From Candidatus Zambryskiibacteriota bacterium (GTDB lineage: Bacteria > Patescibacteriota > Minisyncoccia > Phycocordibacterales > WO2-35-19): 57,943 bases of DNA. How positions within the stretch are numbered: the first letter of the stretch is position 1; every line of letters starts with the position of its first letter. Below are positions 23,653 to 38,653 of the stretch, piece after piece. The stretch is from assembly GCA_016932555.1 (NCBI GenBank), contig JAFGCQ010000016.1:1-57943 (forward strand), read 5' to 3'. The notes under the pieces were generated by a model. The model saw only the letters and a list, made by a program, of their open reading frames with translations, was not told the DNA's origin and did not search any database. Position numbers and translations under genes: made by a program.

Positions 23653-23748
23653 CAATTTTTCTCCTTTTTTATCTATAATTTCCAAAGATCACTCCACTGA
23701 CAGAATAAACCTAAAATCATAATAAATCAATACCTATGAAATGCCCCA

Positions 23749-25168: not shown

Positions 25169-25204
25169 AAAAGGCGAGTGAATATATCCACCCGCCTTTT
25201 ATCA
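25169..25204. terminator. Bidirectional intrinsic-terminator-like hairpin between the sORF and the HD gene
   Basis: 'aaaaGGCGaGTGaatatatcCACcCGCCtttt'. The arms are 12 bp with one mismatch. T-runs occur on both strands (TTTTAT on plus, TTTTTT on minus). Confidence 0.5.
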
Positions 25205-25224: not shown

Positions 25225-25911
25225 ATGCATATCATGTTAGATCATTATGAATTAAAAGAAAAAAACATTAAATTCATTGAAGAAATAAATAGAATTCACA
25301 ATGAAGGTCACACCAAAGATTTGGGATTTGGGCATGATATTATGCATAGCGAAATGACCGCTTGTTACGCACTTGTAATCGGTGAATCAGAAATAGATAA
25401 GCTCAAGGGCTGGTATGCCTCTATGCTACACAGCCTGGATAGAGTATTGGAAGATGAGTCAAAATTATCGGAGATTTTAAAAGAATTACTAAGTTATACA
25501 GAATTTAATTTAAAAGATAAACCGAGAGAAAATGAAGAAATTTGCAAAGCGGTGCTTGACCACGAATTGCCAAACAATAATAAGGATTCTGTAACCAAAA
25601 TTATACTTCAGGATGCAGACCGACTAGCAAATATAAGTCCGGCTATAATAATAAGAGCCGGTCAATTTAGGTATAATATTCCGACTTTTGAACTTGACTA
25701 TCTTGATTTTGATAAAAATCCGGAAAGCACATATCATAAGCCTAAATCATCGTTGGATGATCTCAGAAGCTTATTAGAATGGGAAAAAGATCCTAAATAT
25801 TGCTTACGGCTGCCGAGGGCAAAAGAATTGGGCACAAAATATTTTGAATATATAAAAGAATTTATAAATAGATTAAGAACCAGTTTAGAAGAAATTGGCT
25901 TAAAAAAATAA
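25225..25911 (+). CDS. HD-domain metal-dependent phosphohydrolase-like protein
   Basis: 228 aa. 'H....GFGHDIMH' (H...HD) and 'LQDADRLANI' (DADRL) follow the HD-superfamily pattern. Confidence 0.5.
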   Translation: MHIMLDHYELKEKNIKFIEEINRIHNEGHTKDLGFGHDIMHSEMTACYALVIGESEIDKLKGWYASMLHSLDRVLEDESKLSEILKELLSYTEFNLKDKPRENEEICKAVLDHELPNNNKDSVTKIILQDADRLANISPAIIIRAGQFRYNIPTFELDYLDFDKNPESTYHKPKSSLDDLRSLLEWEKDPKYCLRLPRAKELGTKYFEYIKEFINRLRTSLEEIGLKK

Positions 25912-25914: not shown

Positions 25915-27573
25915 ATGTTACAGGAGAAAATCAACAAAAAAAACAAGGTCTTTGTAGGTATTTTATTAATTATTATTTTTTTATTTAGTTTTGGTGTTCA
26001 CTATTCTCTTTATGAAATTAAAGGTTTTTCTCAAATTGAATATTTCAATCTTTTAATTGCCAAGAACTGGGCAGAAACAGGAGAACTTTCTTATGAAAAC
26101 GCGGAAAACGTTGTCCTCTCTACAGAAAATATAAAGATAAATGGAGTGCCAACTAATCTAGGTAATAAATTAACTTTCTATCTTTATGGCTCTATGTTCC
26201 GCGTTTTTGGTTTTCATCCTGATTTACCAATTTATACATCTTTCGTTCTATATTCGTTAGCTGTGGTTTTTATATTTTTGATTGTAAATAGAGCTTTCAA
26301 TTTAAAAACTGGCTTAACCGCTGTTTTGTTGATGAATTCGGTTCCTTTCGTTTTACCCTATTCTCAACTTGTTGGCCGACACGAATGGGCTTGGTTTTTT
26401 ATGATCCTAGCCGCTTTTTTCTATTTCTGGCCCAAAAAAAGAAAATACCAATATTTGGTTCTAAGTGGCTTATTTTTAGGTCTTTCAGCGGCTACTCGTA
26501 ATAGTTTTCTTGTAGTTTTTCCAGCGTTTTTCATTATGGAACTTTGGCAATATAGAAAATCAACTAAATTAATAATCCAAAGAGAATTAATCTTACTGTT
26601 TTCATTTTTAATCATTATTTTACCGTTAATTGGTAATAATGCTTATATAAAAGCCACACTCGGTATTTCTACGGGAGAACATTATGAATCCTTCACTAAT
26701 TTTGTTCATCTTTTTCCAGATCCATACACCTTTCATTATGAAAAAAATATTTATATAGATGAACTTATAACAAACAAAAATTCATTTTCAGGAGGTGAAT
26801 TTCGGCTTTGGGGTGATTTAGGTTCTTTTTTAGACGAATATGGTTATGATATCGGATTTTTTAAGGGAGAAATAATAACTCGCGCCTATTCTCTATTTAT
26901 TTACTTAAAAGGTCTATTTTTATCACTTATTGTATTTGGCGGTATTTTAACTTGGTTTTTAATTTTTATCGGTTTTAGAGAATTAGTGAAAAAAAAGGAA
27001 TACATCTTTCCTTTATTTGGAATAATATTCTTCATCTGTTGGCTAATTCTTTTAGTTTTTCTAAAAACTTCTAATTATACTCATTTGCTCGCTTTATCTT
27101 TGCCGATTACTATCTTAATGAGTTATGGATTAGTAAGATTATCTGAGATTATTTCCGACTCCATAACTTTCAAGAAAATAAAACCGAGTTTTATCTCTTG
27201 GGTTATTGTTTTGATATTTGTAATTATGTTTGCTCAAATAAGTTGGTGGACTATCCGCGAGCTCTCGGCAAATAGTGGATTAAAAAATTCATTGATCAAT
27301 TTTTCCAAAACAGAGCTTAAAAAATCTACCATAGACTGGAGCGAAGTTACTATGGTTGGATATAGCAAAGAAGAGACTGATCTGCTCACCTATTACCTAA
27401 ATCAAAATTTTATTTTCTTTGATGAAGAAACTGTAAAAAAATTGGCTGAGGAGAGAAAATTAAATTCAGTACTAAAAGAATATAATATTTCTGGATATAT
27501 AGGATTCGACGATAAAACTTCTGAAATTATTAAGAAAAATAGTGGTGATCTAAAAGAATACAAAATCTATTGA
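25915..27573 (+). CDS. Polytopic GT-C-fold membrane glycosyltransferase candidate (ArnT/PMT, GT39-like)
   Basis: 552 aa, about 11+ TM helices, with a C-terminal soluble ~120 aa. The call rests on architecture and context only. Confidence 0.45.
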   Translation: MLQEKINKKNKVFVGILLIIIFLFSFGVHYSLYEIKGFSQIEYFNLLIAKNWAETGELSYENAENVVLSTENIKINGVPTNLGNKLTFYLYGSMFRVFGFHPDLPIYTSFVLYSLAVVFIFLIVNRAFNLKTGLTAVLLMNSVPFVLPYSQLVGRHEWAWFFMILAAFFYFWPKKRKYQYLVLSGLFLGLSAATRNSFLVVFPAFFIMELWQYRKSTKLIIQRELILLFSFLIIILPLIGNNAYIKATLGISTGEHYESFTNFVHLFPDPYTFHYEKNIYIDELITNKNSFSGGEFRLWGDLGSFLDEYGYDIGFFKGEIITRAYSLFIYLKGLFLSLIVFGGILTWFLIFIGFRELVKKKEYIFPLFGIIFFICWLILLVFLKTSNYTHLLALSLPITILMSYGLVRLSEIISDSITFKKIKPSFISWVIVLIFVIMFAQISWWTIRELSANSGLKNSLINFSKTELKKSTIDWSEVTMVGYSKEETDLLTYYLNQNFIFFDEETVKKLAEERKLNSVLKEYNISGYIGFDDKTSEIIKKNSGDLKEYKIY

Positions 27574-28508
27574 TTAAACAGCGGTTTTTTTAAAAAACAA
27601 AATAGACCAATTAAAGCAACGAAGACAGACATAAGAAAAACCAATAATGATAACGCTACAGCTAATTCCTTGGAAACCGCAAAAACAGAAAGTAGAGATA
27701 TAAAAACTAATTCCCGCGTTCCAAGCCCAGCAACAGAAATAGGTAAAAGTGTTAAGAAAGAAGACAGAGTCACTATTGAAGCTATGTAAATAAAAGGTAC
27801 TATATTTAAGCCTACAGAAAGTGCTAGCAAATAAACAATTAAATAATAAGTAAGCCATCCTAAAAGAGTAAGGGCGAAAATCCAGGCATATTCTTTAGTA
27901 CGATAAACTTGAAGTTCATTTAAAAATTCCTGAGAATTCAACTGCCAATAATCCTTGTATTTAGGGGGAATAAAAAAATAAAAGACTTTTTTCAGAAACG
28001 CTCTTATGATTTGATTTTTGAAAACCAAAAAAATCAAAAGGACTATAAGAGCTAAAATTAGACCAATGTAAAAAATTTCACTTTTAAGGATTTGCAAAAA
28101 CAAAAACATTGAAAAATAACCGAAAATTAGGAGAAAAAAGATATCAGCTAATCTATCTAAGACAACACTCACAAAAGATTTACCAATAGAATATCCTGCC
28201 TTGGTAAGATACAATACTCTACTTGCCTCACCTAATCTGCCCGGAGTAAACATACCTATATAAACACTAGAAAGATACATAAGATATGACTCATAAACAG
28301 AATAATTTATTCCCTGTTTTCTCATTAAAAATCTCCAACGTAAAGCACGAACAAATCCAAAAAACAAAACCAATAAAACTGCTAATATAAATTTAAAAAA
28401 ATCTATTTGAGGTCGGAGTTCTTTATAATAAGAAAAATCTAATTTGCTCAAAATAAACACAAAAAGCAATATACCAATTAAAAAAGAATATTTTTTAAGA
28501 AATTTCAT
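27567..28508 (-). CDS. Lysylphosphatidylglycerol-synthase-TM-region/UPF0104 'flippase-like' membrane protein
   Basis: 313 aa. 'AVLLVLFFGFVRALRWRFLM' and 'TPGRLGEASRVLYL' are typical of the LPG_synthase_TM (TIGR00374-like) family. Confidence 0.65.
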   Translation of the reverse strand: MKFLKKYSFLIGILLFVFILSKLDFSYYKELRPQIDFFKFILAVLLVLFFGFVRALRWRFLMRKQGINYSVYESYLMYLSSVYIGMFTPGRLGEASRVLYLTKAGYSIGKSFVSVVLDRLADIFFLLIFGYFSMFLFLQILKSEIFYIGLILALIVLLIFLVFKNQIIRAFLKKVFYFFIPPKYKDYWQLNSQEFLNELQVYRTKEYAWIFALTLLGWLTYYLIVYLLALSVGLNIVPFIYIASIVTLSSFLTLLPISVAGLGTRELVFISLLSVFAVSKELAVALSLLVFLMSVFVALIGLFCFLKKPLFNQ

Positions 28509-29188
28509 TTTTTACCGACTATTATCTGATTAAGTAAAAGAAAACTTAATCCTAAAGATTTTATTATTCTTTCTATTCTTAATTCACCCGGTACACCCAT
28601 GGGTGAAAACATAAATTTATCAGCTTGGATAATTTCAAAATTTGCTTCCTTAAAAGATTTTTTAAGTTTTTCGAGATTAAACATTATATTATGTTTTTCG
28701 CCTTTTAAAAACCTGTCCCGCATAACCCAACCGATTACTCTGCCAACTTTATCAAAAAACGGATTAGGACTTGTTACTATAAAAATTCCTCCCCTTTTCA
28801 AAACCCTGTGTGCTTCCTCAAGCATTTTTTCTGGTCTCGTTACATGTTCTATTATCGCAGCTGCAATTATTACATCAAAAGTATCGGATTGAAAAGGTAA
28901 AGAATGTGCATCTCCTTGAATGATTCTTATGTTTTTATTTTTATTAGCTTTTATAAATTCACGTGATTGTTCTAATCCAATGCATTCAATAACCGGGTAT
29001 TTTTCCTTTATATCATCGAGCATTGAACCATCTGCTGCTCCTATATCTAATATTTTTTGCGGATTGTTATAATATTTATTCATTAATCTCAAAATCTCTG
29101 ACGTTCTTCGCTTTAAACGAAAATAAAAAGAATGCCCTTTATCTTTTCGTCTTTGGATATACACCTGATCTAAATTATTGTCTTCCAT
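28505..29188 (-). CDS. Class I SAM-dependent methyltransferase
   Basis: 'ILDIGAADGSM', 'DVIIAAAIIEHVTRP' and 'LKRGGIFIVTSPN'. Confidence 0.8.
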   Translation of the reverse strand: MEDNNLDQVYIQRRKDKGHSFYFRLKRRTSEILRLMNKYYNNPQKILDIGAADGSMLDDIKEKYPVIECIGLEQSREFIKANKNKNIRIIQGDAHSLPFQSDTFDVIIAAAIIEHVTRPEKMLEEAHRVLKRGGIFIVTSPNPFFDKVGRVIGWVMRDRFLKGEKHNIMFNLEKLKKSFKEANFEIIQADKFMFSPMGVPGELRIERIIKSLGLSFLLLNQIIVGKK

Positions 29189-29191
29189 GTT

Positions 29192-29554
29192 TTATCTTTT
29201 TACTATAACAACATCCCCAAAAAATTTTCTATTTTTTATTTTCACTATTTCAAAACCATTTTTTATATAAAAATTAATTGCAACTTTATTATCTTTCCTT
29301 ACTTTAGCCCAATTAGATTTTGATCGTTTTAAAAGTTCAGTTCCCACATTTTTATTACGATAATTTCTATCCGTAGCTATTAAAACTATTTCATCACCAT
29401 TTTCAATTAGAAAACCTATAATTAAATTATCAATTTCAGTAACAATTCCCGGAAAAAACAAAAAAGGTATTCGTTTAAAAAACATCGGAAAAGAATGCTT
29501 GGTAATTTTAGCAATAGTTAATATATCTTTAAAGTTTTTTTTTCTTATCCTCAT
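29192..29554 (-). CDS. GNAT-family N-acetyltransferase
   Basis: 120 aa. Motif A-like 'TDRNYRNKNVGTELLKR' and 'AINFYIKNGFE'. Confidence 0.7.
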   Translation of the reverse strand: MRIRKKNFKDILTIAKITKHSFPMFFKRIPFLFFPGIVTEIDNLIIGFLIENGDEIVLIATDRNYRNKNVGTELLKRSKSNWAKVRKDNKVAINFYIKNGFEIVKIKNRKFFGDVVIVKR

Positions 29555-30981
29555 GAAAACTTATTAAGAATTAGAGCCTTGCCCATATTTAGCTGTCGCC
29601 AAAGCTGAGTAAAACTACGTATACTAAAAAGGCGTCGGATCATATAACTTGATCTTATATAAAACTTTTTATTAGCCATTTTCACAAACTCGGTAACTTC
29701 TTTTTCTGGTAATTCTTTAGTATCTAGAGACGGTGCTCCGTCTTTTTCTTTACCTTTCATAAATCTATCCCAATATTTGCTATCAATTTGATTATTTGCA
29801 ATAGCCCATAAAAAAAGCTCCGTACCTGGAATGATAATAGTTTTGCTAAATACCGCAAAAGCCGGATCAATTTCTAAAGCTAAATCTAGAGTCTTTTGTA
29901 TAGTTTCTTTGGTTTCCTCAGGAGAGCCCATCATAAAATATCCAACCATCTCCATACCAATTTTTTTACATATTTTGGCACATTTAATTGATTGTTCTTT
30001 AGTAATTCCTTTATTGAGAACTTTGAGTATTCGGTTATCCCCCGCTTCAAATCCAAAACGTATCCGGTAACAGCCAGCTTTTTTCATCTTTGATAAAACT
30101 TCTTCATTAATCGTATCTACTCTGGAACGACATTCCCAAACGATTTTTAGTCTTCTCTTCAAAATTTCATCACATACCTCACTAACCCATTGTTTTCTTA
30201 CAATAAAATTATCGTCAAAAAACATAAACTCCCTTATATCTTCTTCCTTATAAATTTTTTCAACTTCATCTATAAGATTCTGGGGGCTCCTCACTCTCCA
30301 ATTTTTACCCATACGGTTTTTCCTATCACAAAAACTGCAATTAAATGGGCAACCTCGAGTCGCGATAACCGTAGCAAAATGTTTTTCTATGGTAAAAACA
30401 TCAAAATACCTATCTTTAGATGGCAGTAAGTGTCTGGCCGGAAATGGTATTGAATCTAAATTTTCGATCAAAGGTCTGGGATTATTTATTTTCACTTCCC
30501 CTTTCTCTTTGTAAGCCAAACCCAAAATATCTGAAAAATTGCCCTTTCCTTTTTCTAGAGCTTTTACAAGTTCGACAACTGTCACTTCGCCTTCGCTTAT
30601 TACCGCCAAATCAAAGACTCCGTACTCTAAGCTCTCTCTCGGCATGCAAGTTACGCCGGGACCGCCAACAATGAGTTTAATATTGGATTTTATTTCTTTA
30701 ATTTTTTTAGCCAAATCATTAGCTGCTACAAAAGTCCAAGTCATGATGTAAAAACCAACAACATCAGGTTGAAATTCTTTTGTTGTAGATTCAATTATAT
30801 TCCAATAGTCCTTTTCCGCATCACAATCAACTATCTTTACCCCATGCCCATTTTTTTCCAGAACTGAAGCGATATAACAAAGACCGAGCGGAGGGTATAC
30901 ACCTCGGTTTTTTTCTGTTTCTTTGGAATAATGGCCTATCTCGGCTTGAACCAAGCTGGGATTGATAAGAAGAATACGCAT
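29551..30981 (-). CDS. B12-binding-domain radical SAM protein (class B rSAM), paralog 2
   Basis: 476 aa. 'MRILLINPS...PPLGLCYIASVLEKNGHGVKIVD' and 'TRGCPFNCSFCD'. Its ATG shares 1 nt with the upstream TAA (TAATG). Confidence 0.85.
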   Translation of the reverse strand: MRILLINPSLVQAEIGHYSKETEKNRGVYPPLGLCYIASVLEKNGHGVKIVDCDAEKDYWNIIESTTKEFQPDVVGFYIMTWTFVAANDLAKKIKEIKSNIKLIVGGPGVTCMPRESLEYGVFDLAVISEGEVTVVELVKALEKGKGNFSDILGLAYKEKGEVKINNPRPLIENLDSIPFPARHLLPSKDRYFDVFTIEKHFATVIATRGCPFNCSFCDRKNRMGKNWRVRSPQNLIDEVEKIYKEEDIREFMFFDDNFIVRKQWVSEVCDEILKRRLKIVWECRSRVDTINEEVLSKMKKAGCYRIRFGFEAGDNRILKVLNKGITKEQSIKCAKICKKIGMEMVGYFMMGSPEETKETIQKTLDLALEIDPAFAVFSKTIIIPGTELFLWAIANNQIDSKYWDRFMKGKEKDGAPSLDTKELPEKEVTEFVKMANKKFYIRSSYMIRRLFSIRSFTQLWRQLNMGKALILNKFS

Positions 30982-31895
30982 TATTTTCTATAACTAATTT
31001 GATCGGCTAAAAACCCAAATATTATAATCTGGACACCAACTATTATTAAAATGGTAATAGCCGAATCTCCTAACACAGTATTCATGCCGAGCAGAATCAA
31101 AACGCCAATCCATATGCCTAAAACAATTGAAAATAAACCAACAAAGAAAAAGCTTCTTAGGGGTTTAAAATGAATGTACATTCGAAATATTATTGGTAAA
31201 ACATTCATTGGATATTTCAAACCAGCTTTTATAAAAGAATCACCAGCTTTTCTTTTTTTGAAAACAGTAGATACCTCCATAACCCTCATATGTTTACCCC
31301 AAGAATCAATAATAAGTTGTTGAGTTTCGTTATAGTCTTTTATAATATTGAAAATTTGCAAGTATCTTTTATGAAAAGCCATAAGACCGGTAGTAGCATC
31401 AGTGATTCTAAGCCCGGTAATATTAGAGACCAGCCAGGCAAAGAACTTGTTTCCGCATTTTCGATAAAAAGGCATCTTATACTCTAATCCTCCCATAAGT
31501 CGTGAGCCAAAAACACAATCCGCCCGATCTTCTAAAATTGGTCTGACTACTTTATCAATTTCTTCTGGCGGATTCTGCATATCTGCATCAATTTTTACAG
31601 CAATATCAGCCCCCATTTCATAGGCAGTTTGCATACCTGTTCTAGTAGAAGCTCCTAGCCCTCGATTGTAAGGATGAACAACAATCTTTTTAACTCCAGC
31701 CTCTTTGGCTAACTGCGCAGTCTTATCTTTAGAACCATCATCAACGACAATAGTTTCTAATACATAATCTTGATTTTCGCCAGCTACATAGAGTTCGCTT
31801 ATTTTTTTAATCACATCAACAATTGAGTCCTCTTCGTTGTAAGCTGGTATAAAAACTACCACATAAGGTAGATGATATTTTTCAAATTTAGCCAT
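30981..31895 (-). CDS. GT2 polyprenyl-phosphate sugar synthase-like glycosyltransferase (ArnC/GtrB/DPM1-like) with C-terminal TM helices
   Basis: 'VVFIPAYNEEDSI', 'VVDDGSKDKT', 'KIDADMQNPPEE', and two C-terminal hydrophobic helices. Confidence 0.8.
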   Translation of the reverse strand: MAKFEKYHLPYVVVFIPAYNEEDSIVDVIKKISELYVAGENQDYVLETIVVDDGSKDKTAQLAKEAGVKKIVVHPYNRGLGASTRTGMQTAYEMGADIAVKIDADMQNPPEEIDKVVRPILEDRADCVFGSRLMGGLEYKMPFYRKCGNKFFAWLVSNITGLRITDATTGLMAFHKRYLQIFNIIKDYNETQQLIIDSWGKHMRVMEVSTVFKKRKAGDSFIKAGLKYPMNVLPIIFRMYIHFKPLRSFFFVGLFSIVLGIWIGVLILLGMNTVLGDSAITILIIVGVQIIIFGFLADQISYRK

Positions 31896-33015
31896 GTTGA
31901 ATAATATTTTTTATTAATTTTATCATATAATCCAATTGTTTCTTTGTCATTCCTGGATACATTGGTAAAGTAACGATTGATTTTGAAAGTTTTTCGGTTA
32001 TTGGTAAATCACCTTTTTTGTAGCCATAATTTTTCATATAAAATGTTTGAAGATGCACGGGAGGGTCAAAATGAACAGAAGCTTCAATACCATTTTGCTT
32101 TAGTTTTCTCACAAATTCATCCCTGTTACCCCTTTTCAGCTTTATTGTATACATTTGGTAAACATTTTTACAATCCTTAGCTTCTGTAGGAGTTTCAATT
32201 TCTGAGATATCTTTTAAATGCTTAGTCAAATAAGCCGCCTGCTTTCTTCTCATATTATTCATTTTGTCTATCTTTGACATCTGTTCAACCCCAATAGCAG
32301 CCAAAAGATTGCTCATCCTAAAATTATAACCCGCCATCGTGGCAGATCTAAACCAAGGCTTAGCTGCCTTAATTCTTTGACTAGTAGATTTAGATATACC
32401 ATGACCAACCAAAGTTTGGATTTGCGTCAATAGATTTTTATCATTGGTTGTAACCATACCACCTTCACCAGTAGTAATATTTTTGGTTGGAAAGAAAGAA
32501 AAACAGCCGATAGTAAATGATCCAGTCTTTTTATTTTTAAAAGTAGCCCCTATCGCCTCAGCAGAATCCTCTATAACATAAAGTTTGTGCTTCTTGGCGA
32601 TTTCTATAATCTTATCCATCTTACAGGCTTGTCCGGCAAAATGTACTGGCATTATAGCTTCTGTATTTTTAGTAATCTTTTTTTCGATGTCATTCGGATC
32701 AATATTTCCAGTAGCAAAATCTATCTCGGCAAATACCGGCTTGGCACCAGCGGCAACAACGGCATTAGACGAAGCTACAAAAGTAAAACTTGGCAATATA
32801 ACTTCACCCTTTATGCCTAATGTCTTTATAACAACAAAAAGTGCTGAAGCGCAAGAATTCATACTTAAGGCATACTTGGAACCTATATATCGAGCAAATT
32901 TTTCTTCGAACTCTTTATTTTTTGGTCCATGAGTTAACCAGCCTGAATTAAGAACAGCATCAACGGCTTTATGTTCTTTATCGTCAATAAAAGTTTTTGA
33001 CAGAGGAATTTTCAT
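31888..33015 (-). CDS. DegT/DnrJ/EryC1/StrS-family sugar aminotransferase (ArnB-like)
   Basis: 375 aa. 'SGWLTHGPKNKEFEEKFA', 'VIEDSAEAIGA' and 'SFFPTKNITTGEGGMV'. Confidence 0.85.
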   Translation of the reverse strand: MKIPLSKTFIDDKEHKAVDAVLNSGWLTHGPKNKEFEEKFARYIGSKYALSMNSCASALFVVIKTLGIKGEVILPSFTFVASSNAVVAAGAKPVFAEIDFATGNIDPNDIEKKITKNTEAIMPVHFAGQACKMDKIIEIAKKHKLYVIEDSAEAIGATFKNKKTGSFTIGCFSFFPTKNITTGEGGMVTTNDKNLLTQIQTLVGHGISKSTSQRIKAAKPWFRSATMAGYNFRMSNLLAAIGVEQMSKIDKMNNMRRKQAAYLTKHLKDISEIETPTEAKDCKNVYQMYTIKLKRGNRDEFVRKLKQNGIEASVHFDPPVHLQTFYMKNYGYKKGDLPITEKLSKSIVTLPMYPGMTKKQLDYMIKLIKNIIQHG

Positions 33016-34010
33016 TATTTTTTAAAAGCTTTTTTAAACAAACCAGTGGTTTTTATATAATTCACATATTCTTTCAATCCTTCTTCTAGTTGATACTTAG
33101 GCTCATAACCAAGAAGTTTCCTGGCTTTGGAAATATCTAGAGAACCTCTTATTGGCCGGTTTAAATCAGTCGGTTTGATTTCAGTCTTTACTTTTATAGG
33201 AAGAATTTTATCTAAAATTTCAGCAAATTCCTTGGCACTTTTACCTTCTCCGGCCGTAATATTAAAAGTTTGATTTGCTGCATTTGGTGATAATGTGGCC
33301 AAAACAAATCCATGAGCAATGTCTGTGATATAAGTAAAATCTACTTTATCTTCTCCTCCATTATACAATCCTAAGGTCTCACCAAGCAAAGCTTTCTCCA
33401 AAAAAATTTGACTAACTCGACGATTAACATCAGTAGGACCATAAACCGCTGAAGGCCTTATTATAACATGCTCAATGCCGAATTTTTTACTAAAACTCCT
33501 GCTTAAAATCTCGCACGAGAGCTTAGTGCCTCCATATATATCAATAGGCAAAGTTGGATGATCTTCGTCTGCTGGATCGTACTTAAAATGACCGTAAACA
33601 AAACTTGATGAAGAATATAAAAATCTCTCTACCGAATTAGAATACCTTATTGCTTCTAAAACATTGATATGACCATTGAGATTTATTTGGATAGCATCTT
33701 CAAAAAATTCATCTGAAGCGGTAGCTAAGGGGATAGCGACCATATTTATAACTATTTCTGGTTTGAAATCCCTCATAGTATCTATCAATTTGGGTTTATC
33801 ATAAACATCACCACGAACAATTTTTGCTTTATCTTTAATTCTCTTTAATCTTTTAGGCAAATAAAAATTATAGAAACTTTGTTCTCTGGGGATGTAGCAG
33901 GAAAAATTATCATAAACTAAAACTTTATGATTAAGAGTTAGTAATTCTTTGGCAATATTTGAACCAATAAAACCGGCTCCGCCAATTATCATAACCTTTT
34001 TGGCTTTCAT
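33015..34010 (-). CDS. NAD-dependent NDP-sugar epimerase/dehydratase (SDR)
   Basis: 'VMIIGGAGFIGSNI' and catalytic 'YGGTKLSCE'. Confidence 0.8.
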   Translation of the reverse strand: MKAKKVMIIGGAGFIGSNIAKELLTLNHKVLVYDNFSCYIPREQSFYNFYLPKRLKRIKDKAKIVRGDVYDKPKLIDTMRDFKPEIVINMVAIPLATASDEFFEDAIQINLNGHINVLEAIRYSNSVERFLYSSSSFVYGHFKYDPADEDHPTLPIDIYGGTKLSCEILSRSFSKKFGIEHVIIRPSAVYGPTDVNRRVSQIFLEKALLGETLGLYNGGEDKVDFTYITDIAHGFVLATLSPNAANQTFNITAGEGKSAKEFAEILDKILPIKVKTEIKPTDLNRPIRGSLDISKARKLLGYEPKYQLEEGLKEYVNYIKTTGLFKKAFKK

Positions 34011-34052: not shown

Positions 34053-35402
34053 TTACAAAAGCCATTTGTTTAATAATTTTTCTTTAAAATGCTCGAAATT
34101 TGTGAGACCATCAACAACGCCATTAACTAAAATAATGGCAAGAGATAGACCTAAAATTTTAAACCATTCTTTATTTTTTTCCTTTAAGCTCAAAATAAAG
34201 TAGGAAGTAAAAACAGCCAACAGTGGGTAAATCTGGAAGCGATAGCGAGTTTCTACTACCGTAATAAACAAAATTAAAGGTGTTAAGATGGTAAAAGCTA
34301 ATAAATAATATAGAAATTTTTCTTTTAATTTAAAAGCTCGAATAATACCAGCCAAACTAAAAATTAAAACCAAAAATGAAAAAATAGCAGAACTTAAAAC
34401 AAAGAGAGCCTGCTTCCAGCCCGAACTGTAAAACCAAAACCCCATCGGCCTCAAAACGCTGAAATATTTATTTGCTCTAGATAAACTTAAAGTAACAAAG
34501 TTTGCCGGATGATTAAAAACATAATTTTTAAACTCAGTAATTGATTTTTCATTTATTTCTTTCATATCGTGGGTATTTATAAAAGTATCTATTTCTTCAT
34601 TTGTTTCTTGTTCTCCGTTAGCTCCAACATGATTGCCTATCCAAAAATTAGCCGAACCCGCTACACCAAAAGGTATAATATTTTTATGAATTGAATAATT
34701 TCTTACAGTCCAAGGAGTAAAAACAACTATCAATATAAACCCATAAATAAATAAACTTTTCCAGTCTTTTTTTCTTAAGAAATAAAAGATTACAACTGGT
34801 AATATAAATAACAAAGGAGGTCTAGCTAAAACCGCCAAACTACTAATAAAACCCAGTCCCCAAAGCCATTTTTTATCTTGGACATTTAGATATTTAAAAA
34901 ATGCGTAGAAAAATAAACATACAAAAAAAAGATACAAAGTTTCTGACATTAACATAGCTGATATTTCTATAAGATCGGGGTAAAAAGCAAAAACAGCAGC
35001 AGATAAAAGGGCTATTTTTTTCTTTTTTTCTTGATCCTTAAAGATCAGTATAACCGTTAGATATAGAAATAATGTACTGACAACTCTCAATAAAGCTTGA
35101 ATTATCCAAACTGCTTTATAAGAATGCCCAAAAATTTTATAGATACCCGCTAGAAAGTATTCATAAATCGGACCGACTCTTAGGAGTGCATTGTCACTGT
35201 TTATCGATACTTCAGGATTTTCGCGATATCCTATCCCATTAACAATATTTTGAGCTATAGTATCATAAGCATCAGCATCAACTAATGGTGTAATTTGAAA
35301 ATAAAAAGCGTAACTAATACTCAAAATAAAACAAGCTAAAAGTATACCAATCAGCCATTTATTTTGAGAAATAAAATCTTTTACATTATTTTTATTGATC
35401 AT
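34053..35402 (-). CDS. GT-C membrane glycosyltransferase, family 39 / ArnT-like
   Basis: 449 aa. The first-loop acidic motif 'PLVDADAYDTIAQNIVNGIGY' and the ~11 TM architecture are typical of ArnT/PMT_2 proteins. Confidence 0.7.
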   Translation of the reverse strand: MINKNNVKDFISQNKWLIGILLACFILSISYAFYFQITPLVDADAYDTIAQNIVNGIGYRENPEVSINSDNALLRVGPIYEYFLAGIYKIFGHSYKAVWIIQALLRVVSTLFLYLTVILIFKDQEKKKKIALLSAAVFAFYPDLIEISAMLMSETLYLFFVCLFFYAFFKYLNVQDKKWLWGLGFISSLAVLARPPLLFILPVVIFYFLRKKDWKSLFIYGFILIVVFTPWTVRNYSIHKNIIPFGVAGSANFWIGNHVGANGEQETNEEIDTFINTHDMKEINEKSITEFKNYVFNHPANFVTLSLSRANKYFSVLRPMGFWFYSSGWKQALFVLSSAIFSFLVLIFSLAGIIRAFKLKEKFLYYLLAFTILTPLILFITVVETRYRFQIYPLLAVFTSYFILSLKEKNKEWFKILGLSLAIILVNGVVDGLTNFEHFKEKLLNKWLL

Positions 35403-35408
35403 TTTTAT

Positions 35409-36821
35409 TTACTTTGCCGCGAAGAGCCAACTGTAAATCCTTTTTAAAATAACCTTGAAGTGTTTTGGACTTTTTATTTCGCTTACAAATTTAAACATAA
35501 TTTTTGGTCGAAGATAAAACCTCAACAAAGCCCGGCGGCGCAGAACTTTCATTTCTGTCTTAGTAAAACCTGGTGGCGCATAAACCGCATCAGCCAAAAC
35601 AAAATGGGCCCAGTCTTCATCTGACATCTCTTTAAGTTCGCCTTTTTCCATGAGTTTTTGAGTGGCTTCGGTGCCGGGAAAAGGTTTGAAAAGAGAAAAG
35701 CCGGCTCTTTTTAAATCTAGACTCATGGCAAATTTTATAGTTTCCATAATATCCAATTTAGTTTCGGTCGGATAACCGATAATAAAGAAACCGGAAACTT
35801 CGAGACCGCAGTCCTTTATAAGTTTTATTTTTTCTCTTATTTTTGCTGTAGTCAAGTTTTTTCTCATATCTTTAAGAATTTTATCAGAACCAGATTCTAT
35901 ACCTACTGAAATGCTGTAAAGGCCAGCTTTCTTCATAGCCTTAAGAAGTTTTTCGTCTAAAGAATCCAACCTAACACCATTGGGGCAGGTCCAGGTTATA
36001 TCCAGATTATTTTCTTTGAGTTTTTGGCAAAATTCGTAAACCAATTCATGATAAAAAGTAAAATTATCATCTTCAATGTGAATCTCTCTGATACCATAGT
36101 CATGATAAAGAATTTTAATTTCTTCAATTACTTTATCTACACTTCGATGCCTTATCTTCTTGCCAGAAATTAAATAGCCAGCACAGTAAGTGCAAGAAAA
36201 AGGACAACCTCGAGTAATGATAAGAGGGGCAATCGGATAATTTTTAAAAAACCCGCCGTGCGGCGCTAGAGGATATTTGTCTGGACGAATTAAATCCCAA
36301 CTCGGCATACCAAGTTCATCTAGATCTTCTACAAAAATTGGGGCATTAATTTTTGTTTGTTCTCCTGATCGCCAGATTAAACCTGGAATTCCAGACAAAT
36401 TCTCGCCTTGCGTTTGATTTTCTGCTATCAAAGCCAAGAGTTTTGTTAAACCAATCTCTGCCTCTCCTCTGAAAGCAAAATCTGCTTTTGGTAAAAATTC
36501 GAAAATATTTTGAGGACTGCAGGAAGGATGCGGGCCGCCTAAAATTATTTTCGCTCGAGGTAAAACTTTTTTAATGGAATTTATGTAGTCTTTGACGCGA
36601 ATTACATGAAAAGTGAAAATCTGCAGACCAACAACATCAGGTCTCTCCTTCTGTAAGATATTTTCAAATTTCTCCAGAGTTAAATTTTCTTTGATACCAT
36701 CAAGAATTTTTACATCATGTTTTCCTCTTATAGCAGTAGCTAAATAACCTAAACCAAAAGGCGGAATAAGCTCATCCGATTCGGAATTCGGCTTCATAAG
36801 AAGAACCTTAAGCCGTTTCAT
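35409..36821 (-). CDS. B12-binding-domain radical SAM protein (class B rSAM), paralog 3
   Basis: 470 aa. 'KVLLMKPNS...PPFGLGYLATAI' and 'TRGCPFSCTYCA'. TAATG 1-nt overlap with the upstream GT2. Confidence 0.85.
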   Translation of the reverse strand: MKRLKVLLMKPNSESDELIPPFGLGYLATAIRGKHDVKILDGIKENLTLEKFENILQKERPDVVGLQIFTFHVIRVKDYINSIKKVLPRAKIILGGPHPSCSPQNIFEFLPKADFAFRGEAEIGLTKLLALIAENQTQGENLSGIPGLIWRSGEQTKINAPIFVEDLDELGMPSWDLIRPDKYPLAPHGGFFKNYPIAPLIITRGCPFSCTYCAGYLISGKKIRHRSVDKVIEEIKILYHDYGIREIHIEDDNFTFYHELVYEFCQKLKENNLDITWTCPNGVRLDSLDEKLLKAMKKAGLYSISVGIESGSDKILKDMRKNLTTAKIREKIKLIKDCGLEVSGFFIIGYPTETKLDIMETIKFAMSLDLKRAGFSLFKPFPGTEATQKLMEKGELKEMSDEDWAHFVLADAVYAPPGFTKTEMKVLRRRALLRFYLRPKIMFKFVSEIKSPKHFKVILKRIYSWLFAAK

Positions 36822-37537
36822 TACTCAAAAAGATTAAATCTAATAATGTGCCAAATAGCAGCAAAACCATCTTTCCAGTTTATCTTTTTACCTTGCTCGT
36901 AAGTCCTCCCATAAAAAGAAATTCCCACTTCGTAAAGTCGCCATCTACCTTTGGCAATACGAGCGGTAATTTCCGGTTCAATACCAAATCTCTTAGATTT
37001 TAATTCGTGCTTAAAAGAGTCAGCCACCTTTTTGGTAAAAGCTTTGTAACAGGTTTCCATATCGGTAAAACTCAAACCAGTAAGCAAGTCAGAAAGTAGG
37101 GTCAAAAAAATATTACCCAAAAAGTGATAAACGTAAAATACTCTCTTGGCATCACCAGAAAGTATTCTAGAACCATAAACAACATCTGCCTGATTATCTA
37201 AAATCGGTTTTAAAATTTTTTTAAAATCTTCCGGATTATACTCTAAATCAGCATCTTGAATGATAAGAATATCTCCGCTAGCTGCTAATAACCCAGCTTT
37301 TAAAGCGGAACCTTTACCTTCATTTTTTTCTTTAAAGACGATTTTAAGATTTCCACCGGTAGAATTTTTTTCTAATTCTCTCAAAATATCTCGCGTACCA
37401 TCAGTAGAACAATCATCAACAATAACTATCTCTTTTTGCAAGGGTAAATTTACTGCTTGTACTCTTTTGAGGATTTCTTGAATTGTATTTTTTTCGTTGT
37501 AGGCCGGGATAACAACGGATAAAATATTATTTTTCAT
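36821..37537 (-). CDS. GT2 glycosyltransferase (dolichyl/polyprenyl-phosphate sugar synthase-like, no TM tail)
   Basis: 'LSVVIPAYNEKNTI', 'IVDDCSTDGT' and 'QDADLEYNPED'. Confidence 0.8.
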   Translation of the reverse strand: MKNNILSVVIPAYNEKNTIQEILKRVQAVNLPLQKEIVIVDDCSTDGTRDILRELEKNSTGGNLKIVFKEKNEGKGSALKAGLLAASGDILIIQDADLEYNPEDFKKILKPILDNQADVVYGSRILSGDAKRVFYVYHFLGNIFLTLLSDLLTGLSFTDMETCYKAFTKKVADSFKHELKSKRFGIEPEITARIAKGRWRLYEVGISFYGRTYEQGKKINWKDGFAAIWHIIRFNLFE

Positions 37538-37552: not shown

Positions 37553-38653
37553 TCATTCTAAAAAACCTAAAGGTAGGTTGACAAAATCCAATATGAATGA
37601 GTCCATAAAATAACTTGAGATCATATATAATGCCAAAATAGGAAGTGTAATACATAAGCGAAGATTTCTACTCAATTTTTTTATAAATAAACTGGACACC
37701 AAGATTGCAGCGGGCATAGTAATAAAAAGGACTCTAGTTACTACCGGCCACAGAAGAACCGAGATACAAGAAAAAATAACTAGCCATATGAATATCAAAT
37801 CTCTATTTATAATTTTGCTTTTAATCATATTTTTTGTGCGATTAAGTAAAAGATAAAAACCTGGGAAAAACAAGAGCCAGCCAAAGTTAAATATCGAACC
37901 AAAAGATTTTATAAATTCTAATGTTTTATTTTGGAAACTATATTTTTTTTGTTCTAGAAACCAGTCGAGATAAGTGTAATCAAATTTCAAAAAACCATAA
38001 ATATTTAGCAAAAGAAACGGACCAAAAGATATGCACCCAGTAATAATTACCTTCTTTAGTATTTTTAGCCAATCTGTCCAATCCCTAAATATAATTATTC
38101 CGAATATGACAACATAGGCCACGAAGGCATACTCCTTATATAAACCCCCTAGACCCACTAGAACAGAAGACAAATAAAGCCACTTATCACTCTCATTATC
38201 ATTTTTAAAATACTTATAAGAAAAATATAAAGAGACCATATAAAAAAACCAGCCCCCCATATCCATCATATAAGCAAGACCAAAAACAACTACAGCATAA
38301 TTAACTACTAAAAAAAGAGCGCCTAAAAAAGCCGTTAGTTTATCTCCAAACATTTCTTTAATAAGCAGGTAGGCCGATAAACCCATGAATACATAAAAAA
38401 TACCATTAAGTAATAACCAAGAGACCTTAAAGCTGTTAGTAAACAAATCAAAAAACATAATTGATTGCAATCCAAGATAAGTGCTGACAATCATCATTGG
38501 CATAAATTCTTCAGGAACTATACCCGTTTTTAATACTTCAATACTATCAGTATAATGGAAACTATCTCCCGCTATTTGTGGCTGAAGAAGACAAATAGAA
38601 AAAACGGCTAATAATATAAGTAGTCCAGAAATTATAATCTTATCTTTCGTCAT
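37553..38653 (-). CDS. Polytopic membrane protein, possibly a GT-C glycosyltransferase or polymerase
   Basis: 366 aa, about 10 TM helices. No motif that I can name, so the call rests on context only. Confidence 0.35.
   Translation of the reverse strand: MTKDKIIISGLLILLAVFSICLLQPQIAGDSFHYTDSIEVLKTGIVPEEFMPMMIVSTYLGLQSIMFFDLFTNSFKVSWLLLNGIFYVFMGLSAYLLIKEMFGDKLTAFLGALFLVVNYAVVVFGLAYMMDMGGWFFYMVSLYFSYKYFKNDNESDKWLYLSSVLVGLGGLYKEYAFVAYVVIFGIIIFRDWTDWLKILKKVIITGCISFGPFLLLNIYGFLKFDYTYLDWFLEQKKYSFQNKTLEFIKSFGSIFNFGWLLFFPGFYLLLNRTKNMIKSKIINRDLIFIWLVIFSCISVLLWPVVTRVLFITMPAAILVSSLFIKKLSRNLRLCITLPILALYMISSYFMDSFILDFVNLPLGFLE

Follow-up and report, generated by a model that had tools for sequence, protein, structure and literature searches.

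A gene for a B12-binding radical SAM enzyme placed between those for a lipid-loading glycosyltransferase and a flippase candidate raises the question of what the enzyme modifies, and at which stage. We analyzed such a locus in a 57,943-nucleotide stretch from a Candidatus Zambryskiibacteriota bacterium (contig JAFGCQ010000016.1; hereafter the window), in which the initial annotation had seen an Arn-like aminosugar module with an inserted radical SAM step. An ORF check of the window, together with Pfam and NCBIfam profiles, confirmed seven minus-strand genes in the 27567-34010 module and the domains assigned to them; all seven lie at exactly the following coordinates. They encode an extended, 4-epimerase-like SDR (33015..34010; Pfam Epimerase, 146 bits), a PLP-dependent sugar aminotransferase of the DegT/ArnB family (31888..33015; DegT, 415 bits), a GT2 of the ArnC/GtrB/DPMS class (30981..31895; GT2, 78 bits), the radical SAM enzyme, called rSAM_B here (29551..30981; B12-binding, 86 bits; Radical_SAM, 98 bits), a small GNAT N-acetyltransferase that is a candidate for aminosugar N-acylation (29192..29554; Acetyltransf_7, 36 bits), a class I SAM-dependent methyltransferase (28505..29188; Methyltransf_11, 74 bits) and an LPG_synthase_TM/UPF0104 protein without a synthase domain, the flippase candidate (27567..28508; PF03706, 164 bits; TIGR00374, 91 bits, both exceeding their cut-offs). 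From the SDR end the junctions measure -1, -8, -1, -4, +3 and -4 nt; five gene pairs overlap, by 1-8 nt, and one, the GNAT and methyltransferase genes, is separated by 3 nt, as had been described. The observation was therefore confirmed, while its interpretation was partly supported by what follows. Two further points had gone unremarked: the seven genes are the tail of a co-directional string running down from at least position 40628, and the window encodes four B12-radical SAM paralogs, each directly 3' of a glycosyltransferase gene and three of them with overlaps of 1-4 nt.

We asked whether the GT2 could be a processive synthase, and the outcome was against it. Its best NCBIfam matches were AglJ, PpgS, the Dol-P-hexose transferase, ArnC and PgfS, and its sequence matches in the PDB were DPMS, ArnC and GtrB. 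With an AF2 model (pLDDT 86.8) as the Foldseek query, the top 25 hits were all ArnC, DPMS or GtrB over 300-320 columns; the nearest solved structure was ArnC, followed by DPMS and GtrB, and the match was full length, including the C-terminal TM hairpin (helices 251-269 and 279-297 by hydropathy). The metal motif D103-A-D-M-Q-N108 was invariant in 30 orthologs and matches those of known polyprenyl-phosphate glycosyltransferases, namely DADLQD in GtrB, DADLQN in ArnC and DADLQH in DPMS (bioRxiv 10.1101/2025.01.29.634835). The GT2 sequence lacks a QxxRW motif. On these data the GT2 belongs to the polyprenyl-phosphate glycosyltransferases and is no processive synthase, in agreement with the Arn-like logic proposed for the block.

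The SDR gave a different picture, as an ArnA-like identity was not borne out. The best PDB matches of the SDR were a UDP-Glc 4-epimerase (4zrm) and a UDP-GlcA 4-epimerase (6zl6), with MoeE5 (6kv9) also among the matches, and the ArnA profile reached only 30 bits. The motif SSSF(V/I)YG...YGxTK was kept in 27 syntenic orthologs, with the Ser-Tyr-Lys triad only; neither the SDR nor these orthologs had an acid/base Glu or Asp of the dehydratase/decarboxylase type. Judged by sequence, the SDR is epimerase-like and not ArnA-like, and since it lacks the acid/base Glu and matches 4-epimerases best, the sugar is probably not Ara4N made by the ArnA route. The DegT protein carries its PLP lysine, K178, in SFFPTK178NITTGEGG; it scored 341 bits with PseC and 281 bits with ArnB, each under cut-off, and its PDB matches were scyllo-inositol transaminase, perosamine synthase, QdtB and ArnB.

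To examine conservation of the arrangement we used a dereplicated set of 42 Patescibacteria and Omnitrophota loci, each with an rSAM_B ortholog (at least 45% identity); a locus was counted for a given feature only if it had sufficient flanking genes to judge it. The order SDR-DegT-GT2-B12-radical SAM was conserved. A GT2 gene lay at most three co-directional genes upstream of the radical SAM ortholog in 32/35 loci, and DegT and SDR genes were present in 21/22 and 20/22, respectively. An LPG_synthase_TM gene followed downstream in 13/20 loci, a GT-C gene likewise in 13/20, and a methyltransferase gene was near in 15/20. GNAT occurred in 9/20, its place being taken in others by a hexapeptide acyltransferase (L087 and L153, the latter also with GtrA) or a formyltransferase. 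Four loci (L105, L106, L111, L089) carried genes for an ArnA-N-type formyltransferase (Formyl_trans_N/C) and ArnD-type Polysacc_deac_1 proteins, the latter specifically in L105, L111 and L089; these genes and the recurrence of GT-C and flippase-like genes again fit the Arn-like logic. Omnitrophota-type loci had the order SDR-DegT-GT2-rSAM-rSAM-MT, with neither a flippase-like gene nor a GT-C nearby. The arrangement is far beyond chance, and the module is a real, widely conserved operon of CPR/Patescibacteria-type ultra-small bacteria.

A reverse test, with seven loci picked through GT2 orthologs and then examined for a B12-radical SAM gene, found SDR-DegT-GT2 with one in 3/7 and without one in 4/7. 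The latter loci (L151-L154) had none within 7 kb, although their SDR, DegT and GT2 proteins were 54-56%, 59-62% and 58-61% identical to those of the window and their SDRs shared the SSSFVYG/YGGTK motifs with loci that have the enzyme; in L152 a GT-C gene followed directly after GT2. Since SDR-DegT-GT2 exists without it, the radical SAM enzyme does not make the aminosugar. These loci bear on the idea that it supplies the keto group for DegT, through radical dehydrogenation or diol dehydration as in BtrN or AprD4. Such a role would account for an SDR that looks like a mere epimerase, and it would suit the closeness of rSAM_B to AprD4 (see below) and the existence of rSAM-SDR-DegT fusions; it is nevertheless largely refuted by the syntenic loci devoid of the enzyme, and we consider it extremely improbable. 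The absence of the gene from syntenic loci, which the initial annotation had held to speak against its proposal, was literally found in these more distant relatives, but it marks the enzyme as accessory, optional tailoring and does not make it unrelated. SDR-DegT-GT2 is thus a conserved cassette that also occurs alone. In the Patescibacteria/Omnitrophota clade that includes the window, a tailoring block was added directly after GT2. It comprises at least one B12-radical SAM enzyme and an N-acyl- or N-formyltransferase, in most cases together with a class I methyltransferase; downstream of it, genes for an LPG_synthase_TM protein and a convergent GT-C are common.

rSAM_B has the CxxxCxxC motif at residues 211-218 (C211xxxC215xxC218), and its orthologs formed more than 100 clusters at 47-69% identity. 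Its AF2 model (pLDDT 86.6) matched TsrM, OxsB, MgmA, AprD4, CysS and TokK in Foldseek, AprD4 being the best match both by PDB sequence and by TM-score. The best NCBIfam model was HpnJ at 227 bits, far under its cut-off of 577, ahead of BchE at 195; with the other paralogs BchE and HpnJ scored about equally. Foldseek and sequence comparison place rSAM_B in class B, and no finer than that. Most characterized B12-radical SAM enzymes are methylases (PMC9204698), and the reaction here could be C-methylation or a rearrangement. The latter would correspond to an HpnJ- or Cds-like enzyme that contracts or rearranges the lipid-linked aminosugar to a carbocyclic, cyclitol-like head, the product being a modified membrane lipid and not a donor. 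Besides the HpnJ score, the gene set parallels hpnI (GT2), hpnK (deacetylase), hpnJ (B12-radical SAM) and hpnL (PMC12324291, PMC13459092), with the hpnK slot filled by the Polysacc_deac_1 genes of the three loci named above, and the Omnitrophota loci lack a GT-C close by. Against this, the HpnJ score is far under the family cut-off, with BchE about equal to it in the other paralogs, the window has no hopanoid genes, methylases predominate among the characterized enzymes, and GT-C genes recur; on chemical grounds, a carbocycle could not serve as the glycosyl phosphate donor that a GT-C requires. We therefore regard this alternative as unlikely.

Many B12-radical SAM enzymes act on isoprenoid lipids or peptides (PMC13459092), and further NCBIfam matches of rSAM_B were to ladderane-lipid, HpnR, ApyD and MCR-methylase families. 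These matches, and tandem arrays of 2-4 paralogs (L102, L117, L009), would suit a substrate other than a monosaccharide, such as the polyprenyl chain, the finished polymer, a protein or a peptide. However, linkage to SDR, DegT, GT2 and sugar N-acyltransferases was tight and specific, fusions of radical SAM domains to SDR/DegT, GT4 or GT9 all indicate carbohydrate substrates, and there was no conserved peptide precursor or lipid-synthesis gene nearby, which leaves a non-sugar substrate very improbable.

A sugar substrate could be met before or after lipid loading. From gene order, the initial annotation had suggested that the substrate may be the polyprenyl-phospho-aminosugar itself. Among 210 radical SAM ORFs in the fetched loci, 27% had a co-directional GT2 immediately upstream, while GT2s made up 6.4% of all ORFs, and 29-30/37 of the GT2s directly upstream matched ArnC, AglJ, PgfS or PpgS models. 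GT2-rSAM units, in part with GT-C or LPG_synthase_TM genes, also occurred without SDR or DegT, in five other loci (L082, L003, L038, L008, L010) and in the window itself. The latter unit (34053..37537, minus strand) consists of a soluble DPM1-like GT2 (36821-37537), the paralog rSAM_C (35409-36821) and a GT-C (34053..35402), identified with Pfam and joined by junctions of -1 and +6 nt; identity is 31% between rSAM_C and rSAM_B and 34% between the two GT2s. The radical SAM enzymes thus couple to glycosyltransferases rather than to sugar-nucleotide enzymes.

The same pathway might still run in a different order, with the enzyme acting on the soluble NDP-sugar, for example by C-methylation of an NDP-keto- or NDP-amino-sugar, and the GT2 loading the finished sugar. 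No TM segment was found by hydropathy in the radical SAM proteins, rSAM_B included, and the rSAM+GT2 fusions P0157 and P0180 are soluble. A paralogous companion radical SAM domain, 35% identical to rSAM_B, is fused in one polypeptide to SDR and DegT orthologs (P0121, 1189 aa; P0122-P0124; P0159 with reversed domain order), which fits a nucleotide-sugar stage at least as well as a lipid-linked one. The Omnitrophota loci, lacking a nearby flippase-like gene or GT-C, point the same way. All of this counts against a lipid-linked substrate, as does the fact that the sole LPG_synthase_TM-rSAM fusion, P0125, is a singleton, an exhaustive search having found no second. On the other side, the SDR/DegT-fused enzyme belongs to a different subfamily absent from the window; rSAM_B orthologs stand after GT2, and not between DegT and GT2, in 29/35 loci; some GT2-rSAM units have no sugar-nucleotide enzyme at all; and HpnJ, the closest-scoring characterized family, acts on a lipid-bound sugar after the glycosyltransferase (PMC13459092). 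Action before loading is possible in our estimate, but somewhat doubtful. Fusions of radical SAM and methyltransferase domains were also found, in about 30 protein clusters.

On the export side, hydropathy gave about 8 TM helices for the LPG_synthase_TM protein and about 8 or more for the GT-C at 25915..27573 (plus strand; PMT_2, 37 bits), the 3' end of which overlaps the LPG_synthase_TM gene by 7 nt. To our knowledge, a flippase role toward polyprenyl-phosphate sugars has never been shown for LPG_synthase_TM proteins. Both flanking GT-C candidates passed the Pfam PMT_2 cut-off of 26 bits, the one at 34053..35402 with 50 bits. The convergent GT-Cs of ortholog loci (18 ORFs) were full-length homologs of the former, at 23-39% identity, and not homologs of the latter. 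By these sequence relationships it is the convergent GT-C that recurs with the module and is most likely the cognate transferase, while the upstream one, which had been associated with the module, belongs to the second unit.

On balance, we give about an even chance to an Arn-type pathway for carrier-lipid decoration of a surface glycan, with the radical SAM step on the lipid-linked sugar. The SDR and DegT would provide an NDP-aminosugar other than Ara4N from the ArnA route; its amine would be N-acylated by the GNAT (elsewhere by a formyltransferase or hexapeptide acyltransferase), and the GT2 would load the sugar onto undecaprenyl phosphate at the cytoplasmic face. rSAM_B would then carry out a radical C-H functionalization, most likely C-methylation; the lipid-linked stage seems the most plausible given the translational coupling of rSAM_B to a membrane-anchored GT2. 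The methyltransferase would add an N- or O-methyl group, the LPG_synthase_TM protein would flip the lipid-linked sugar, and the convergent GT-C would move it onto an extracytoplasmic acceptor, probably a Wzx/Wzy-type polymer encoded by the remainder of the 15-46 kb locus. One further point weighs against this scheme: since the SDR lacks dehydratase/decarboxylase acid/base residues, the keto-sugar source for DegT is unaccounted for.

Compared with the Arn system (PmrHFIJKLM; ArnB, ArnA, ArnC, ArnD, ArnE/F, ArnT), the module shares a DegT-family aminotransferase, a GT2 nearest to ArnC in structure with a DADxQN motif and two-TM hairpin, a PMT_2/ArnT-superfamily GT-C and, in ortholog loci, the formyltransferase and ArnD-type deacetylase. 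The logic of aminosugar synthesis, N-acyl masking, Und-P loading, flipping and transfer outside the membrane is also alike. It differs in that the SDR is epimerase-like and not a decarboxylase, equivalog cut-offs are unmet (ArnB 281/631, ArnC 73/529, ArnA 30/777), an LPG_synthase_TM protein stands in place of the small ArnE/F-type flippases, a GNAT is present without a deacylase, and a B12-radical SAM enzyme and a methyltransferase are added; lipid A is an unlikely acceptor in a CPR bacterium. Gtr-type systems (GtrA/B/C; CsbB/GtcA/YfhO; GacI-L; PgfS/E/M; PpgS/Rv3779; archaeal AglJ/AglD/AglS) likewise modify an already assembled surface polymer or protein by means of a polyprenyl-phosphate GT2, a candidate flippase and a GT-C. 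The best-scoring families for our GT2 included PgfS, PpgS and AglJ, and the Pgf system includes an SDR epimerase too. However, descriptions of the characterized systems place no radical SAM enzyme between GT2 and flippase, and the candidate here is of UPF0104 and not GtrA type.

The hpnI-hpnK-hpnJ-hpnL set is similar in having a GT2 that puts an aminosugar onto a lipid, a deacetylase, a B12-radical SAM enzyme acting on the lipid-bound aminosugar, for which HpnJ is the best-scoring curated family, and HpnL, which is of the same family as our LPG_synthase_TM protein (PMC12324291). Its acceptor lipid is bacteriohopanetetrol, whereas here it would be polyprenyl phosphate; rSAM_B scores well below the HpnJ cut-off, SHC and HpnH context is missing from the window, and HpnJ yields an end-product lipid, whereas the GT-C partner here implies onward transfer. 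Sugar tailoring by B12-radical SAM methylases is also described for moenomycin (MoeK5, alongside the SDR epimerase MoeE5) and gentamicin (GenD1/GenK, alongside GenD2/GenS2/GenN), where the B12-radical SAM enzyme shares one sugar substrate with a DegT-type aminotransferase, a class I methyltransferase and an SDR or oxidoreductase. These belong to actinomycete secondary metabolism, with a phosphoglycerate ether lipid or aminocyclitol aglycone instead of a recyclable carrier; the moeK5 product is among those needed for the first lipid-phospho-linked monosaccharide intermediate (PMC3814723). Calditol synthase (Cds) of Sulfolobus is described as remodeling a hexose on a membrane lipid, but it is archaeal, contracts the ring of a GDGT head group and has no GT-C or flippase context. 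With HpnJ, MoeK5 and Cds as B12-radical SAM enzymes genetically tied to lipid-linked sugars (PMC13459092, PMC9204698, PMC3814723), HpnI/K/J with HpnL as a further precedent (PMC13459092, PMC12324291) and GenD1 as one for sugar tailoring, the "new kind of donor tailoring" first proposed for this locus was an overstatement.

The seven minus-strand ORFs of the operon (27567-34010) lay exactly where the initial annotation had placed them, and each of its domain calls was confirmed by Pfam and NCBIfam. They encode an SDR of the Epimerase family (33015-34010), a DegT aminotransferase (31888-33015; Pfam DegT 415 bits, PLP lysine in SFFPTK178NITTGEGG), a GT2 with two C-terminal hydrophobic helices (30981-31895), the B12-binding radical SAM protein rSAM_B (29551-30981; B12-binding and Radical_SAM domains at 86 and 98 bits, Fe-S motif C211xxxC215xxC218), a GNAT (29192-29554), a Methyltransf_11 methyltransferase (28505-29188) and an LPG_synthase_TM protein (27567-28508; PF03706 164 bits, ~8 TM helices). 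The six junctions from the SDR to LPG_synthase_TM measured -1, -8, -1, -4, +3 and -4 nt. A promoter scan of 25-41.5 kb gave no excess over shuffled sequence (79 found vs 73 expected).

The operon forms the tail of a co-directional string within a ~30-kb glycan locus (roughly 12.6-46 kb) that also contains Wzy_C-TPR, a Wzx-like flippase, several GT4s, five class I methyltransferases, a second DegT, a second SDR and an NDP-sugar dehydrogenase, with a Bac_transf initiating transferase further on. The window is chromosomal (GatB, SecA, SecDF, FtsW and 5S/23S rRNA genes are present) and has a GC content of ~33%, and its nearest homologs are found in Patescibacteria (Portnoybacteria, Buchananbacteria, Parcubacteria group). 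The rRNA sequences at the window edge (57384-57943, minus; a 5S gene and the 3' part of a 23S gene) could serve for taxonomic placement, and an IS200-like Y1 transposase occupies the window start (46-690, plus). Immediately beyond the glycan locus, on its upstream side, lies a 554-aa protein (46001-47665, minus) with weak TraG/VirD4 coupling-protein signals. A DedA/VTT-domain membrane protein (8747-9409, minus) adjoins the locus as well; the UptA flippases that recycle undecaprenyl phosphate belong to this family, and the protein could be a carrier-lipid recycler for the glycan locus.

We analyzed the GT2 for features of the polyprenyl-phosphate glycosyltransferases (Pren-P GTs; ArnC/GtrB/DPMS class), whose metal-binding motifs read DADLQD in GtrB, DADLQN in ArnC and DADLQH in DPMS (bioRxiv 10.1101/2025.01.29.634835). 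The GT2 motif, D103-A-D-M-Q-N108, fits the DXD signature DADLQ(D/N/H), and D103, D105 and Q107 were invariant in 30 orthologs. Hydropathy placed TM helices at 251-269 and 279-297, while the AF2 model (30 orthologs, pLDDT 86.8) had helices at 227-243, 245-268 and 277-303. When this model was searched with Foldseek, ranks 1-25 were all ArnC (ranks 1-6), DPMS or GtrB, aligned over 300-320 columns including the TM hairpin, and the same three proteins were the sole noteworthy PDB matches by sequence. The best curated families, all polyprenyl-phosphate sugar synthases, were AglJ, PpgS, Dol-P-hexose transferase, ArnC and PgfS; each scored under its equivalog cut-off, and the ArnC equivalog NF007986 reached 73 bits vs a cut-off of 529. 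Sequence and model together thus identify the GT2 as a Pren-P GT, ArnC-like in its action without being an ArnC ortholog. The proposal that the GT2 is a polyprenyl-phosphate synthase and not a processive one was upheld, since the protein had no QxxRW motif and its neighbours were all Pren-P GTs.

The SDR is not of the ArnA type. Motif alignment, by which SDR calls in the related loci were also checked, gave SSSF(V/I)YG ... YGxTK without Glu in the SDR and in 27 syntenic orthologs. The corresponding motifs are TDE in 4,6-dehydratases and TSE in ArnA/UXS decarboxylases, so the SDR carries a Ser-Tyr-Lys triad without the Asp/Glu of either group. Its nearest solved relatives were UDP-Glc and UDP-GlcA 4-epimerases, and the ArnA model scored 30 bits vs a cut-off of 777. 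For the DegT protein, in which K178 is present, ArnB scored 281 (cut-off 631) and PseC higher, 341 (cut-off 423.5). A further sugar-nucleotide set, more ArnA-like in appearance, lies elsewhere in the window (18715-22336, minus): a DegT (21239-22336), a methyltransferase (20692-21273), a short NDP-sugar dehydrogenase of 314 aa without a C-terminal domain match (19707-20651), and an SDR with TSSNE, Glu present (18715-19704), which scored 74 bits with ArnA and 90 bits with UDP-4-keto-pentose/UDP-xylose synthase.

By sequence and fold, rSAM_B is assigned to class B of the radical SAM enzymes, with predicted cobalamin binding; AprD4 is a class B fold that does not use B12. The AF2 model (pLDDT 86.6) matched TsrM, OxsB, MgmA, AprD4, CysS and TokK (TM-scores 0.62-0.76), and comparison by Foldseek and with PDB entries did not separate methylase from rearrangement or dehydratase. 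Hydropathy gave no TM segment. The best curated family was HpnJ (TIGR03471), yet at 227.5 bits vs a cut-off of 577.6, and no hopanoid context (SHC, HpnH) was present in the window; we therefore ruled out that rSAM_B is HpnJ itself.

The window holds four B12-rSAM paralogs, all on the minus strand and 24-34% identical to one another. Each lies directly 3' of a glycosyltransferase gene, which three of the four overlap by 1-4 nt. rSAM_A (22402-23685) follows a GT4 (23749-25026), rSAM_B overlaps the GT2 by 1 nt, rSAM_C (35409-36821) overlaps a second GT2 (36821-37537) by 1 nt and is itself followed by a GT-C (34053-35402), and rSAM_D (41944-43380) overlaps a GT-B-like/GtrA fusion (43377-44795) by 4 nt. 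BchE and HpnJ scores were about equal for rSAM_A, rSAM_C and rSAM_D. The 472-aa fusion (minus) ends in a C-terminal GtrA-type 4-TM domain (65 bits), and its N-terminal ~340 aa gave sub-threshold GT4/GT-B signals only. The GT4 gene before rSAM_A (minus) is divergent from an HD-like gene (25225-25911, plus) that is not conserved across related loci, and a strong hairpin with a 14-bp stem, followed by a T tract, lies between the two (25169-25200). Tandem arrays of three to four B12-rSAMs were also seen in four other loci (L077 of Kuenenia, L009, L117 and L143); the Kuenenia array may represent the proposed ladderane-lipid genes.

The LPG_synthase_TM protein consists of the TM domain alone (313 aa) and has no MprF-type C-terminal aminoacyl-PG synthase domain. 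From its sequence it belongs to the stand-alone UPF0104/TIGR00374 'flippase-like' proteins, for which flipping of Und-P-sugars is putative. No ORF resembling the small ArnE/ArnF subunits (SMR/EamA-like) was found in 25-41 kb, and the LPG_synthase_TM protein fills their position. Three GT-C ORFs, with 8-11 hydrophobic segments each, passed the PMT_2 cut-off of 26.1: 25915-27573 (37 bits), 34053-35402 (50 bits) and 37553-38653 (40 bits). Both GT-C candidates flanking the operon are thus over threshold, although their likeness to ArnT appears to hold at the superfamily level only; a PDB sequence search returned nothing for the LPG_synthase_TM protein or GT-C. The ArnT-like partner had been sought in 34053-35402, directly upstream of the operon. 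In the ortholog loci, the recurrent GT-C is convergent and lies just past the LPG_synthase_TM gene, and all such ORFs (n=18) were full-length homologs of 25915-27573 and not of 34053-35402, the latter being most likely a member of the adjoining GT2-rSAM-GT-C unit.

A search for rSAM_B orthologs identified more than 100 clusters (47-69% identity) in Patescibacteria and Omnitrophota. The survey covered 55 ortholog loci (42 once dereplicated at 90%), whose ORFs were typed by profiles made from the proteins of the window; denominators are the loci with flanking genes sufficient to judge a feature. These statistics rest mainly on the metagenome scan, since the matches listed from genome contigs were mostly distant paralogs. 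A co-directional GT2 occurred within three genes upstream in 32/35 loci, immediately upstream in 23 and with one paralogous rSAM between in 6. DegT and SDR were near in 21 and 20 of 22 loci, respectively. Among 20 loci, LPG_synthase_TM lay downstream in 13, a GT-C was near in 13, a methyltransferase in 15 and a GNAT in 9, while 12 had a second B12-rSAM adjoining the ortholog. More widely, a co-directional GT2 stood immediately upstream of 27% of 210 rSAM ORFs, GT2s being 6.4% of all ORFs, and ArnC, AglJ, PgfS or PpgS models matched 29-30 of the 37 GT2s directly upstream of rSAMs. Accessories in the ortholog loci included hexapeptide acyltransferases (L087), a nucleotidyltransferase (L091) and SPASM-type rSAMs. 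Genes for an ArnA-N-type formyltransferase and an ArnD-type deformylase (Polysacc_deac_1) were present in L105, L106, L111 and L089 and absent from the window operon, which has only the GNAT. These accessories complete the Arn vocabulary and so support the Arn-like reading.

Loci chosen by their rSAM were balanced with a search for GT2 homologs, from which seven GT2-ortholog loci were taken solely for their long contigs. A B12-rSAM followed the GT2 directly in three (L149, L150 and L155), while four (L151-L154) had none within 7 kb. In the latter the SDR (54-56% identity, with the SSSFVYG/YGGTK motifs unchanged), DegT (59-62%) and GT2 (58-61%) are all still represented by true orthologs; in L152 a PMT_2 GT-C comes directly after the GT2, and in L153 a Polysacc_deac_1, a hexapeptide acyltransferase and GtrA precede the cassette. 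At least 28 of 49 GT2-ortholog clusters on contigs of at least 10 kb shared the contig with a B12-rSAM, an approximate count obtained by pairing, by hand, the lengths of the longest contigs in the GT2 and rSAM homolog lists. All verified absences fell at a GT2 identity of 61% or less, and in a rough NJ tree of the GT2 orthologs (drawn without support values) the rSAM-less loci were interspersed among those containing an rSAM. From these observations we conclude that SDR-DegT-GT2(-GT-C) forms an Arn-like cassette sufficient in itself, whereas the rSAM block is a tailoring module of accessory nature and patchy distribution. The initial annotation's 'inserted' radical step thus stands as optional tailoring, given the cassette with and without it, but absence of the rSAM from syntenic loci, which it had counted against its own reading, does literally occur in distant relatives. 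Given an epimerase-like SDR and AprD4 as the nearest structure, we had also considered that the rSAM makes the keto group used by DegT. This was rejected because L151-L154 retain the orthologous cassette without a B12-rSAM, which therefore does not supply that group.

Natural fusions place the rSAM, SDR, DegT and methyltransferase in one pathway, although they do not fix the stage at which rSAM_B acts. L100 contains a single 1189-aa ORF (5457-9026) joining B12-rSAM, SDR (54% identical to that of the window) and DegT (57%), followed by a GT2 and then an rSAM_B ortholog; L091 has an 867-aa B12-rSAM+SDR fusion (114-2717). With the L100 fusion as query, the database yielded four rSAM-SDR(-DegT) clusters, an independent SDR-rSAM in which the domain order is reversed, ~30 clusters of B12-rSAM with a class I methyltransferase (~698 aa), rSAM+GT2, rSAM+GT4 and rSAM+GT9 proteins, and one LPG_synthase_TM+rSAM (P0125). 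The closest window paralog of every fused rSAM was rSAM_B (29-37% identity); those fused to SDR/DegT form a companion subfamily, which the window lacks and which many ortholog loci encode as stand-alone proteins. Used as a query at E<1e-30, P0125 retrieved >15,000 clusters (50% identity). No other fusion of its kind turned up when 1.84 billion representatives were searched exhaustively with HMMER, and the nearest relatives of each half were stand-alone proteins; as a singleton that may be a frameshift artefact, P0125 shows adjacency only and was dropped as proof of membrane tethering. The GT2-rSAM fusions P0157 and P0180 were likewise dropped as evidence for a lipid stage, since both are soluble and neither is of Pren-P type. 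Four giant proteins of 2000-2600 aa (P0199, P0265, P0271 and P0277) were each matched by the rSAM query in 3-5 separate places, a pattern suggestive of several radical SAM domains per chain.

Beyond what is established, namely the set of parts, the GT2 as a Pren-P GT, the conserved gene order and the rSAM as an accessory, we propose a pathway in which the SDR and DegT would produce an NDP-aminosugar whose amine would be N-acylated, after which the GT2 would load the sugar onto undecaprenyl phosphate. The B12-rSAM would then carry out a radical tailoring step and the methyltransferase would methylate the product, which the LPG_synthase_TM protein would flip and the GT-C at 25915-27573 would transfer onto an extracytoplasmic acceptor. 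Its main rival is that the rSAM acts earlier, on the nucleotide sugar before GT2 loading. The rSAM-SDR-DegT fusions fit such a stage, as do Omnitrophota loci without a nearby flippase or GT-C, and for these reasons we give it a lower but appreciable probability. Action at the lipid-linked stage is favoured, with confidence approaching an even balance, because the constant partner of the rSAM in the wider family is the Pren-P GT2 and not the sugar-nucleotide enzymes, because both the window and loci of archaea and bacteria contain GT2-rSAM(-GT-C/LPG_synthase_TM) units that lack SDR and DegT, and because translational coupling links the rSAM gene to the GT2 gene. A further reason is that HpnI/K/J, the nearest characterised analogue, follows that very order in acting on an aminosugar already bound to lipid, and is accompanied by HpnL of the LPG_synthase_TM family (PMC13459092, PMC12324291).

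As to the reaction, we favour C-methylation by analogy, since most characterised B12-rSAMs are methylases; a carbocyclic product is less likely because of the GT-C partner. The gentamicin enzymes GenD1/GenK act beside an oxidoreductase/DegT/N-methyltransferase set. Both they and MoeK5, which acts beside the SDR epimerase MoeE5, are sugar C-methylases (PMC9204698, PMC3814723). The most far-reaching reading, that the B12-rSAM modifies the polyprenyl-phosphate-linked aminosugar itself, so that a sugar with a C-branch (or a rearrangement) would arise on the carrier lipid prior to flipping, is put forward tentatively, somewhat short of an even balance.

Remodelling of a lipid-anchored sugar by a B12-rSAM is already known, with HpnJ, Cds and MoeK5 as genetic precedents. 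What is new is a radical SAM step in a Pren-P GT/flippase/GT-C system, the standard bacterial route for decorating surface polymers, none of which has been so described. In the literature searched, no paper joined a cobalamin radical SAM enzyme with undecaprenyl- or dolichyl-phosphate glycosylation, nor did any combine a cobalamin radical enzyme, undecaprenyl and a glycosyltransferase, or a B12-binding rSAM, a glycosyltransferase and Patescibacteria; a search on PDB codes 8VR2/3/5 gave nothing relevant. Dozens of lineages within Patescibacteria and Omnitrophota keep the radical step, which occurs four times in this one locus. The B12-rSAM clade that includes rSAM_B is very large, uncharacterised and of wide phylogeny, and is concentrated in ultra-small uncultivated lineages; the reaction of rSAM_B, once known, would give function to many 'BchE-like' or 'YgiQ-like' annotations and might bring to light new aminosugars, C-branched or rearranged, from the envelopes of uncultivated episymbionts. 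If the carrier-stage reading is true, the B12-rSAM genes that lie in their thousands next to glycosyltransferase genes across CPR bacteria, Omnitrophota and DPANN archaea would make up a class of radical glycan tailoring at carrier level that has so far gone unrecognised, and the surface chemistry of these ultra-small organisms would depend on cobalamin, which CPR bacteria probably must scavenge.

The window shares with HpnI/K/J the order of a glycosyltransferase followed by a B12-rSAM as well as a protein of the HpnL (LPG_synthase_TM) family, but rSAM_B falls below the HpnJ cut-off. The Arn system differs in having the ArnA-N formyltransferase, the ArnD deformylase and ArnE/F, all of which the window operon lacks, with LPG_synthase_TM standing in the place of ArnE/F.
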